Shown here one piece after another: positions 6,089 through 48,589 of a DNA stretch of 64,000 bases. Position 1 is the first letter of the stretch. Each line of letters begins with the position of its first letter. This stretch comes from Candidatus Hodarchaeota archaeon (GTDB taxonomy: Archaea > Asgardarchaeota > Heimdallarchaeia > Hodarchaeales > Hodarchaeaceae). Location: assembly GCA_016840035.1 (NCBI GenBank), contig JAEOTC010000086.1, positions 64,001 to 128,000 of the forward strand. Reading direction: 5' to 3'. The translations under genes were made by a program, and so were the position numbers. The notes under the pieces were generated by a model. It searched no databases, was not told the DNA's origin, and saw only the letters and a list, made by a program, of their open reading frames with translations.

Positions 6089-7344
6089 AACATTATTTCT
6101 GCAATGTTTTGGTAAGAATTAAGTTTGTTTATGGCCTCAGTACACCCTTCAATTAAAGGTGTATTGTTTGATTCTTCAGCTTTTTGTTTTGCGCCCTCGA
6201 GTAAAGTTGTAGCTTCATTAAAATGCGCTATAGCTTCAGGCATTAGCTGATCGTATTCAACGACCGCATTACAAAACTTAGTCATTGCATCGAAATAATA
6301 AATTTGGGGTTGAAATGATGCAGAGAGTTCTTCACTTGGTAGCTTCGAAAGCATGCCATCCAGAGTTTTACGCGCATTGGTAAAGTTAACAGCAGCCAAT
6401 TCATTATTATCTTTTGACATATGGTCTTTTGCTAATGCCTCGTAATACGATGACATCTGAATCAATTCCTGGAGTTCATATTCAATATTACTTTGAATTT
6501 TACTTAAAGATCTGTAGAGCTGGGCTGATTTACTATACTCCTTGGAGGCTTTGTCATAGATTTCGTTCTCAGATTGAATAATGCCTGTGGAAAAGAATTT
6601 TTCTGCTTGTTTTTCCAATTTTTGAATACCTAAACTTATAATTTGAACACGGGTTTTGTCAAAATCTTTATTACTAGTTTCTTGTCCTAAGAAACGAGCT
6701 TTGCGAAAGAAACGTAAAGCTTGGTACATTTCACTCGAATTTGAGGAAGAAATTCCTCGTAAATTGTATAAGAGACCCGTCACATAATAGATATTTCGTA
6801 ATGAATCAAAATAATGAAAGTAATCCTGAGATTTCTGTTCAAATTCCAATTCATTTGAGTACCGTTTGATCGCTTCAGTATATAGGATCTCGGCTTGTGC
6901 TAGATCATTCTCTTCAAAACTGGTCTGTGCACGAATGTTTTGGACCCGAGCATCAGTTCTTAGCAATAATCGATCGATATCATATTGCCATCTAGAATAG
7001 ACTTCTGGAAAATCTTTCTGAATGGTCGAAATTCCTTCTTGAACCTTCTGGTAATTATTTATTGCTTTAGAAATTCGATTACTGAGAAATAAAAATTCGC
7101 TATTAAAGAATAAACGTAAGTTCTGTAAAAGATGAAGATAGAAATCGATTTCTGGACTTTCTTGCGAGCTTAAAGTCTCATTCAATTCGTCACATATCTG
7201 AACTAATTCAGCAATTCTATCTGCTGAAATTTGATAGTCCTGAGTAAAGATCTCTTTTAATTTCGTCATAGCAATTTTTTCACTCATATATCGATCCACA
7301 CTGACAGTTAAAATATGCACAAGTCTATTCTGGAAAAGAGTCAA
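6061..7344 (-). CDS. Helical-repeat (TPR-like) hypothetical protein
   Basis: 427-aa all-alpha pattern with A..Y..A / A..F..A motifs. Confidence 0.65.
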   Translation of the reverse strand: MTLFQNRLVHILTVSVDRYMSEKIAMTKLKEIFTQDYQISADRIAELVQICDELNETLSSQESPEIDFYLHLLQNLRLFFNSEFLFLSNRISKAINNYQKVQEGISTIQKDFPEVYSRWQYDIDRLLLRTDARVQNIRAQTSFEENDLAQAEILYTEAIKRYSNELEFEQKSQDYFHYFDSLRNIYYVTGLLYNLRGISSSNSSEMYQALRFFRKARFLGQETSNKDFDKTRVQIISLGIQKLEKQAEKFFSTGIIQSENEIYDKASKEYSKSAQLYRSLSKIQSNIEYELQELIQMSSYYEALAKDHMSKDNNELAAVNFTNARKTLDGMLSKLPSEELSASFQPQIYYFDAMTKFCNAVVEYDQLMPEAIAHFNEATTLLEGAKQKAEESNNTPLIEGCTEAINKLNSYQNIAEIMFQTDGLSEE

Positions 7345-34363: not shown

Positions 34364-34720
34364 TTAATATAACTTTAGTGTAGAAGTGATTTTTTCGACC
34401 TCAAGTTGATTGTGGGGTCCTACTCCAATTGCTGTTGTAGTACCTGGAGGTAGTTGGGTTCTTCCAGCATCATTAATTTTGCTTACAAATACTCCTTGTC
34501 TCCTTATTCGTGCCTCGATTTCTTCAAGTTGAGCTTCAGAATCGACCGCAAGGACTACCTTCATCTGACCCCCATTCCACCACTGATTAAAGAGAGTAGG
34601 ATTTTGTCTCATTATTTTAATTGCGGCACTGACTGCTGCATGTGAAGCTTGTGCCGCTGCTTTCCCCTTGGACATTTTAAGGTCTTTTCTCAGAATGAGG
34701 ATTTGCTTGAGTTCTACCAT
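34364..34720 (-). CDS. pth2: Peptidyl-tRNA hydrolase Pth2
   Basis: RKDLKMSKGKAAAQASHA, DAGRTQLPPGTTT..GVGP. Confidence 0.96.
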   Translation of the reverse strand: MVELKQILILRKDLKMSKGKAAAQASHAAVSAAIKIMRQNPTLFNQWWNGGQMKVVLAVDSEAQLEEIEARIRRQGVFVSKINDAGRTQLPPGTTTAIGVGPHNQLEVEKITSTLKLY

Positions 34721-34805
34721 TCTTTTTTCCTCCAGTTCTCAACTATTGCATTGGAAATAATTTTGTAGGACCTAAGAGATACCCTTCAATAAATATTCGG
34801 AGGAA

Positions 34806-34900
34806 TACTCCTCAGTGAGGTACATGGACATCATTAACAGGTTCAAGTGGTGTCCGATTATGAACCCATCATCAGTATAGGTCAGTATCATCATTCTGGT
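34806..34900 (-). ncRNA. Dual-guide C/D box RNA predicted to target 16S rRNA helix 34 (both strands)
   Basis: C ATGATGA (34894-88), guide TACTGACCTATA, D' CTGA (34875-72), hairpin GGGTTCA/TGAACCT, C' ATGATGT, guide CCATGTACCTCA, D CTGA (34815-12); guides complement conserved archaeal 16S UAGGUCAGUAU and GAGGUGCAUGG. Confidence 0.9.
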
Positions 34901-35076
34901 GATTATAGTCAAGTTTGCATCAATTAAGGCAAGTGATCTAAATATCACCATGTTATACTGAAGGATATCTCAAATATTGCTAATAAGAGGTTGTTTTTGG
35001 AGGTGATTTAATTCTTTAGAATTATTTGGAGATGAATCCAACTTGATTAAATTTCTTTAAAAAATAGATCCAGTCG

Positions 35077-35595
35077 CTAGGCAACTAGTTCTTCGCCCTT
35101 GGTAATTCTTATCCTGCATGGAGTGGGGAATTTTGCTTTTCCACGGCGAAGGGCATCTTTAGCCATTTCTAGATTTTCAAGATTAGTACGTACAAATAAT
35201 AATCTATCCTCTTCATATACACGGGCAGCTACACTAATTACTTTGCCAAAAGCTTTTCGCATTCCATTTTGAATACGATCTGCTCCTGCACCAGTCATCA
35301 TCTTATTTTCTCGAATACGATGATGAGGGTAAACACAAATTCGATAATGATAATTTTCTCGACCAAGATTTCGTGTTAAGAATCGATTCACGTGTATCCT
35401 GGCTGCTTCTAATGCGTTGTGTGAGATTTGACATCGTTCTTTAGCAATTAAAGACACTTCTATAGGAAAATCTGTACCTGGAGAACCTAGATCAAAAGTA
35501 CGAATTTTAGGGTCAGGTCCACCTTTTATGAATTTTTTGCGCGTAAAGGGTGGGCGGTCAATACGAGTATAGCAGTGAGCTGGTCTTTTTCCCAT
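35077..35595 (-). CDS. rpl10e: 50S ribosomal protein uL16 (L10e)
   Basis: RPAHCY, ALEAARI, RENKMMTGAGADRIQNGMRKAFGK. Confidence 0.97.
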   Translation of the reverse strand: MGKRPAHCYTRIDRPPFTRKKFIKGGPDPKIRTFDLGSPGTDFPIEVSLIAKERCQISHNALEAARIHVNRFLTRNLGRENYHYRICVYPHHRIRENKMMTGAGADRIQNGMRKAFGKVISVAARVYEEDRLLFVRTNLENLEMAKDALRRGKAKFPTPCRIRITKGEELVA

Positions 35596-38571: not shown

Positions 38572-38664
38572 GAAAGGATCCTCTATACTCAAGATCATCA
38601 TCATTTAGGGATACTCTAAGAAGTACTCCTTATCGGTAGGGCTAGAGACATCATGGGATCCTTC
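38572..38664 (-). ncRNA. C/D box guide RNA with long terminal stem and internal hairpin; D guide matches tRNA-Leu(CAA) C34
   Basis: Stem GAAGGATCC/GGATCCTTT; ATGATGT, guide CTCTAGCCCTA, CCGA, hairpin, ATGATGA, guide TGATCTTGAGTA, TAGA. Confidence 0.78.
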
Positions 38665-48175: not shown

Positions 48176-48283
48176 GGATCCGTGGCTTAGCCAGGATAAA
48201 GCTTTTATACATGTAGAGCTTCTAGAAAGAGCGGCGGCCTTCTAAGTCGCAGGTCGGGGGTTCAAATCCCCTCGGATCCGCCA
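48176..48283 (+). tRNA. tRNA-Arg(UCU) with a 30-nt D-loop intron (48198-48227) and encoded CCA
   Basis: GGATCCG/CGGATCC-G-CCA; GCGGC-CTTCTAA-GTCGC; relaxed BHB in the D-loop. Confidence 0.93.
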
Positions 48284-48486: not shown

Positions 48487-48589
48487 GAGCCCTTCGCTTA
48501 GCATGGATAGAGTGCTTGCCTCCGGAGCAAGGATTATCTATTTCATGATCCTCCGTAAGAGGTCGTGAGTTCAAATCTCACAGGGCCCG
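48487..48589 (+). tRNA. tRNA-Arg(CCG) with a ~28-nt intron in the 3' anticodon-stem strand; A2-C71 mismatch
   Basis: GAGCCCT/AGGGCCC; CTTGC-CTCCGGA-GCAAG with the stem strand repeated as GTAAG 28 nt later; GTGAG-TTCAAAT-CTCAC. Confidence 0.87.

Follow-up and report, generated by a model that had tools for sequence, protein, structure and literature searches.

A box C/D guide RNA of Hodarchaeaceae with predicted targets on both strands of 16S rRNA helix 34

The 64,000-nucleotide stretch of Hodarchaeal DNA analysed here (the window) carries on its minus strand, at 34812-34894, a box C/D guide RNA that reads box C, 12-nt guide, box D', 37-nt hairpin, box C', 12-nt guide and box D. In the reading that we prefer and hold to be very probable, this RNA would act with L7Ae, Nop5 and fibrillarin, methylating two Gs of 16S rRNA helix 34 while holding the strands of that helix and docking through its hairpin loop. 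The reading builds on the anatomy of the RNA, its conservation, covariation and complementarity to rRNA and the core proteins encoded by its host, and from these we infer expression, the two methylations, a chaperone role and the pairing of the loop. The RNA is best filed as an archaeal double-guide C/D sRNA, new for its closed C'/D' helix and its probable accessory pairing. The literature searched has next to nothing on box C/D guide RNAs of Asgard archaea, Hodarchaeales are often placed nearest to eukaryotes, and the predicted targets are two Gm sites in helix 34 of the decoding centre that are common to yeast, plants and humans. The middle of the RNA is extended in a eukaryote-like way, with a helix and no K-loop, and an apparent accessory base-pairing, hitherto a eukaryotic feature, is found in an archaeal RNA. 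The RNA bears on the timing of snoRNA-type architecture and of conserved rRNA marks, although ancestry is not shown thereby.

The sRNA is flanked by the genes for uL16/L10e and PTH2, all three on the minus strand, and a Pelota/eRF1-like gene comes after. Its parts and neighbours are as follows, in the order of transcription.

35077-35595 (-): rpl10e (uL16/L10e), the upstream neighbour (Pfam PF00252)
34888-34894 (-): box C, AUGAUGA; RUGAUGA is constant in 30 homologs, except for UGACGA in G017 and G001
34876-34887 (-): D' guide, UACUGACCUAUA; the N+5 nucleotide is C34880 and the core ACUGACCUA is invariant
34872-34875 (-): box D', CUGA, unchanged in every homolog
34835-34871 (-): D'-C' spacer of 37 nt with the hairpin; stem 34861-34869 with 34837-34845, loop 34846-34860
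34849-34855 (-): loop heptamer GGACACC, candidate for a third antisense element; kept by 29 of 30 homologs (GGACACA in the other one)
34828-34834 (-): box C', AUGAUGU, invariant
34816-34827 (-): D guide, CCAUGUACCUCA; the N+5 nucleotide is C34820 and CAUGUACCUC is invariant
34812-34815 (-): box D, CUGA; CCGA in G017, G001 and G022
34799-34811 (-): 3' hairpin (GGAG-loop-CUCC) and then a U-rich tract, a possible 3' end or terminator
34364-34720 (-): PTH2 (PF01981)

A first-pass annotation of the window had placed a C/D guide RNA here, between rpl10e and pth2 on the same strand. Sequence and Pfam matches agree with the boxes, guides and neighbours that it gave, and the canonical boxes and 12-nt spacings, invariant across homologs, bear out the identity of the RNA. 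In the host RNA both the C-D' and the C'-D spacing are 12 nt; the first spacer is 13 nt in three genomes. The terminal stem is weak in the homologs, with 2-5 bp that are often offset. In G017, G001 and G022 a U5->C change in box C is paired with a U2->C change in box D (UGACGA/CCGA). This double change, from U-U to C-C at the K-turn 3b-3n position, supports a predicted pairing of the C and D boxes. The GGAG/CUCC hairpin at the 3' side has variable loops and is seen in the five closest relatives only. We also note a T6 run at 35059-35064 (-), 13 nt past the stop codon of rpl10e. As a likely archaeal terminator it makes a separate promoter for the sRNA probable, and an A/T-rich element ~30 nt upstream of box C suggests one, though this is a weak indication in a genome of 36% GC.

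The host assembly (293 contigs, 87% complete) is without a 16S gene, and guide pairing was therefore tested on the 16S of relatives. Four genes from the same genus were used (G002, G008, G017 and G001), which are identical over the relevant stretch; all four carry both target sequences, GGUAGGUCAGUA and GGAGGUGCAUGG, unchanged. The D' guide pairs with GGUA[G]GUCAGUA on the 3' strand of helix 34 over 11 bp (10 Watson-Crick and one G-U, -17.0 kcal/mol), with its N+5 position at G1142 of the G002 16S. The D guide pairs with GGAG[G]UGCAUGG on the 5' strand, again over 11 bp (10 Watson-Crick and one G-U, -19.8 kcal/mol), with N+5 at G986. In both duplexes the bracketed G stands opposite the fifth guide nucleotide upstream of the box in a Watson-Crick C-G pair, and co-folding shows the two target stretches pairing together as helix 34. 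The earlier proposal that the guides match opposite strands of helix 34, with N+5 sites at UA[G]GUC and GAG[G]UGCAUGG, is thus confirmed on same-genus 16S. Half-units of the form TGATGN-N12-CTGA number just 27 in the host genome, and shuffled guides equal the observed pairing score on 16S with P ~0.003 per guide; here both halves of one RNA reach that score, on opposite strands of one helix. Chance is excluded as the source of the pairing between guides and 16S. As a separate observation, the D guide has a U opposite a 16S G, and this wobble is kept in 30/30 homologs, though a C would pair better. A search of the host genome for a perfect Watson-Crick target of the wobble-bearing guide gave none except the antisense strand of the gene itself.

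The RNA occurs once per genome in 20 of the 21 genomes of the genus (Hodarchaeaceae; BLASTN and covariance model), the one that misses it being 70% complete, and a pattern scan added nine further metagenome contigs. It lies 78-288 nt downstream of rpl10e, on the same strand, at 19/21 Hodarchaeaceae rpl10e loci. Over the 21 genomes and nine metagenome contigs, the boxes, both guide cores and the loop heptamer are constant against variable flanks and a variable stem. G022, which belongs to the same order but to a sister family, has a diverged ortholog that lies 235 nt beyond rpl10e, downstream, and shares the UGACGA/CCGA box pair of G017 and G001. The D' guide of this ortholog is still aimed at the same G, while its D guide has drifted: the latter has a mismatch at the helix 34 site, and its best-energy site is near 16S position 1290 and requires a bulge. 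The G022 hairpin is short and lacks the loop motif. A 16S gene was sought in G022 and G023 and not found in either.

Beyond these genomes the searches point to a narrow distribution. The covariance model R1, run over 83 genomes of the class, matched in the genus alone, and relaxed patterns for either guide gave G022 as the sole real match within the class. The exact D-guide pattern, run over 400 Asgard genomes, matched outside the genus in coding-like contexts without boxes, and the number of such matches was close to that of a reversed-pattern control. In all, the model, the exact guide pattern and the relaxed patterns recovered no ortholog in 61 other Heimdallarchaeia or ~320 other Asgard genomes. 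The region downstream of rpl10e holds no sRNA in G028, G034 and G044, and in G023 the contig ends too early. As far as seen, the family is limited to Hodarchaeales, and the form with two helix 34 guides and the loop motif occurs in Hodarchaeaceae only.

The long segment between D' and C' sets the RNA apart. Classical archaeal sRNAs are ~50-70 nt long and have a short K-loop (3-9 nt) between D' and C' (PMC6009581, PMC7994747), whereas this RNA is ~87 nt long and its D'-C' spacer measures 35-39 nt across homologs. The minimum free energy fold of the single sequence is uninformative (z = -0.46), so that covariation was needed to establish the hairpin. Over 18 sequences, 96.7% of the cells in the stem are paired and compensatory changes occur at 6/9 pairs; over 30 sequences the values are 96.2% and 8/9, in an alignment that is fitted to the model and leans towards structure. 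None of 500 shuffles reaches the observed stem score, and slid registers are <46% paired. D' and C' are thus joined by a helix of 9-11 bp that closes the C'/D' motif. In genomes without an extra base after D', the helix starts directly after D' and three unpaired nucleotides precede the GA of C', which is full K-turn geometry; the remaining genomes have a small internal loop between D' and the helix.

Long internal hairpins are also present in three further C/D-like RNAs of the host genome, so this build looks typical of the lineage. One lies in the window at 38572-38664 (-). Its terminal stem measures 8 bp (AAGGATCC/GGATCCTT), its boxes are C AUGAUGU, a D'-like CCGA and C' AUGAUGA, with an internal hairpin and no canonical D box, and its first guide pairs best with 23S near 640 (-17.2 kcal/mol, on the partial 23S of G017). 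The other two are outside the window. The canonical C/D sRNA at G000:C11:27826-27893 (+) has an internal hairpin of 9-10 bp and a D' guide that forms 10 Watson-Crick bp with the 16S 530 loop (GCCGCGGUAAAACC), aimed at the U of GGUAA, which we take to be the position of yeast Um578/human Um627. The C/D sRNA at ~6885-6990 of the minus strand of G000:C184 has an 8-bp internal hairpin and a D guide with 11 Watson-Crick bp to 23S near position 850.

The hairpin loop of 15 nt may contribute a third contact with rRNA. The complement of its conserved heptamer, GGUGUCC, occurs once in 16S, at 1016-1022, which is 22 nt 3' of the D target and corresponds to the h36/h37 junction (E. coli ~1081-1087, by the gapless alignment in PMC4644070). 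The loop and the D guide are colinear on 16S, with a spacer of 21 nt in the RNA against 22 nt in the rRNA. Averaged across 16 distinct loop variants, duplex energy on 16S is best at the GGUGUCC site (-16.7 kcal/mol), which ranks first or comes within 1 kcal/mol of first in 13/16 of them; 0/40 column-permuted controls fall below -12.9 kcal/mol. For the G000 loop alone, an alternative site is slightly better by energy. The Hodarchaeal 23S, searched except for its last third, has no site of the GGUGUCC type. A complete 23S at G001:C57:307-3242 (L163) matches neither the 23S of G017 nor G001:C38 in blastn and is probably on a contaminant contig, and its three GGUGUCC sites were ignored for that reason. 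A third box pair serving the loop (UGAUGA overlapping D') was considered and rejected, as it is present in six genomes only. We put the chance that GGACACC pairs with 16S as a third antisense element at somewhat better than even. Judged by sequence, a conserved D'-C' element complementary to rRNA near a methylation site, the hallmark of the eukaryotic extra-pairing C/D snoRNAs (van Nues et al. 2011, PMC3116282), is apparently present here as well. Those snoRNAs are from yeast and human, whereas the Hodarchaeal element sits in the hairpin loop of an archaeal sRNA and comes from computation only.

By the usual features the RNA belongs with the archaeal C/D sRNAs: boxes C, D, C' and D' are present, the spacings are 12 nt, and the guide pairings of 11 bp exceed the usual minimum of 9-10 bp and have a Watson-Crick pair at N+5. 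The host encodes the core proteins, with the Nop5 (PF01798) and fibrillarin (PF01269) genes adjacent in an operon on C112 and an L7Ae-family gene (PF01248) on C71. No Rfam family reached its gathering threshold; among the archaeal sR models (sR11, snoPyro_CD, sR22 and others) the top score was 14.3 bits, against a threshold of 39. The closest described counterparts in design are Nanoarchaeum equitans sR17 (helix 28) and sR15 (helix 30), double guides to both strands of a helix for which a role as folding chaperones was proposed (PMC4644070). They share with the Hodarchaeal RNA the D and D' guides on two strands of one 16S helix and the proposed joint role in methylation and folding. They differ in addressing helices 28 and 30 and in being ~50-60 nt long, against helix 34 and ~87 nt here, and the Hodarchaeal RNA has a covarying helix of 9-11 bp in place of the K-loop, a candidate third antisense element and an unrelated sequence.

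Guides to the same stretches of helix 34 are likewise known, among the sRNAs listed in the supplement of Dennis et al. 2015 (PMC4644070). Counting N+5 on the published sequence, Pyrobaculum calidifontis sR32, which addresses the 3' strand, selects the same G as the Hodarchaeal D' guide. Four sRNAs address the 5' strand (S. acidocaldarius sR6, M. kandleri sR120, I. hospitalis sR310 and P. calidifontis sR49), with N+5 on the G one nucleotide 5' of the Hodarchaeal D-guide site. The guide cores of these five are identical to the Hodarchaeal ones (…CUGACCU…, …AUGCACCU…), but their partner guides are directed elsewhere and their build is short and classical. Helix 34 is a recurrent guide target in archaea, and the double-guide kind is already known. 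What had been put forward as an undescribed system stands in part, as a new family with an unusual build; as a description of the kind, which is well known, it was overstated. The RNA represents a genuine guide RNA family that is undescribed in the literature searched.

The two predicted sites coincide with eukaryotic ones. Helix 34 of yeast carries Gm1271 (guided by snR40) and Gm1428 (snR56), which equal human Gm1328 and Gm1490 and sites in plants (PMC2794176 Table 1). The exact nucleotides follow from the yeast 18S tiling oligos of PMC5199042. The GGUGGUGCAUGGCCG stretch is in oligo 32, and Um1269 and Gm1271 require a U and a G two positions apart. A further constraint is ac4C1280, nine positions past Gm1271, which must be a C and which we presume to lie in a CCG context. 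From these three constraints, the G directly 5' of UGCAUGG is yeast G1271. When oligos 32 to 36 are joined through their overlaps, G1428 falls on the first G of AGGUCUG; two of the oligos as printed lack a base and conflict with their neighbours in the overlaps, which was put down to transcription errors. The pseudouridine Psi1415 lands on a U only in the chosen oligo register. The claimed identity of the predicted sites with yeast Gm1271/human Gm1328 and yeast Gm1428/human Gm1490 is upheld by the published site table and the oligos together. Box usage, which had been described as the same, is not: yeast snR40 guides Gm1271 from D' (PMC4344503), whereas the Hodarchaeal RNA would use its D guide for that site.

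In the mechanism that we favour, the ~87-nt RNA would assemble with L7Ae, Nop5 and fibrillarin, the helix of 9-11 bp that closes C'/D' taking the place of the classical K-loop. The D guide, on the 5' strand of helix 34, would direct 2'-O-methylation of the G before UGCAUGG (G986; E. coli C1051; yeast G1271), and the D' guide, on the 3' strand, that of the first G of GGUCAGUA (G1142; E. coli A1197; yeast G1428). In the bound state the RNA may keep the strands of helix 34 apart yet close, in line with proposals for other archaeal long-range double guides. Through its apical loop GGACACC it probably also pairs, in colinear fashion, with 16S 1016-1022 at the h36/h37 junction, a third contact that would dock the particle or keep adjoining hairpins open.

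Several other accounts of the locus deserve consideration. A small protein gene might be suspected, as an ORF of 59 aa (34772-34951) overlaps the RNA on the same strand, or the boxes might be fortuitous. The ORF has no Pfam match, and homologs differ by indels of 1 and 2 nt, so it is not a coding gene; with a covarying stem, invariant guides beside variable flanks and null statistics that speak against chance, we regard both versions as practically dismissed. An assembly chaperone that pairs with helix 34 and leaves it unmethylated would fit the role proposed for long-range double guides (PMC4644070), and a mesophilic, low-GC genome with few sRNAs may retain just those needed for folding. Pairing by itself, however, would call for neither a Watson-Crick C-G at N+5 in 30 homologs nor a 12-nt box spacing, and fibrillarin is present in the host, which makes an exclusively chaperone function unlikely. 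The loop could be a protein-binding or structural module with a fortuitous match to 16S. Its invariant core is just 7 nt, and a given 7-mer would turn up in 1.5 kb of RNA with P ~0.09; some lineages reach up to 11 bp through their loop flanks, yet taken together the flanks add pairs at no more than the chance rate; invariance extends to the top of the stem (UCA/UGA), a feature that rRNA pairing leaves unaccounted for; and the motif is absent from the short hairpin of the G022 ortholog. Against such a module are the colinear match 22 nt from a guide target with matching spacer lengths, a mean energy over 16 loop variants that no permuted control equals, and the tight loops in the other long-hairpin sRNAs of the host genome. 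We consider the module a possible reading, though a doubtful one.

The most far-reaching alternative, advanced in the first-pass annotation, is that the RNA is a direct ancestor, and thus a homolog, of SNORD32/snR40 and SNORD25/snR56 that was split into two genes during eukaryogenesis. The predicted sites do equal two eukaryote-wide Gm sites in helix 34, the host belongs to the Hodarchaeales, eukaryotic snoRNAs offer a parallel to its long D'-C' region and accessory pairing, and lists of snoRNAs with extra complementarity include yeast snR40 and snR56. Yet the eukaryotic RNAs (snR40/SNORD32A and snR56/SNORD25), like the Hodarchaeal one in their predicted modified nucleotides, are two separate RNAs with other second targets and show no covariance-model similarity to it. 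With a 106-nt query, Rfam SNORD25, SNORD32, snR40 and snR56 were absent from the matches even at E up to 10, and generic C/D families alone appeared, at 8-17 bits. The double arrangement is confined to one family, the D guide has already diverged in the sister-family ortholog, the other Asgard genomes searched gave no ortholog, and box usage differs in yeast. Moreover, guides are constrained by their target, so similarity between guides cannot show descent, and since unrelated sRNAs of other archaea also address helix 34 (the same G in Pyrobaculum sR32, the adjacent G on the other strand in four more, all with unrelated partner guides), an independent origin is at least as likely. Independent acquisition would suffice to explain the coincidence with the eukaryotic sites. 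The proposed history of an ancestral dual guide that later split thus finds little to sustain it, and we consider direct ancestry quite improbable. The broader form of the idea, in which Hodarchaeales sRNAs are intermediate between archaeal sRNAs and eukaryotic snoRNAs, with a helix-closed C'/D' K-turn and accessory pairing, and this RNA is a true homolog of the SNORD32 and SNORD25 lineages, seems to us to have an equally slim chance. If it were true, the RNA would install two helix 34 Gm marks kept by all eukaryotes. We treat the Hodarchaeal RNA as a functional analogue of the eukaryotic snoRNAs, descent not being shown.

Two minor observations concern other RNA genes. The 16S gene of G008 (L032, G008:C9:1695-3919) spans 2225 nt against ~1475, which implies an insertion of ~750 nt, either an intron or an expansion. 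The window itself has two tRNA matches on the plus strand, at 48217-48272 and 48487-48589; the latter occupies 103 nt for a 71-position model, which suggests that it contains an intron.
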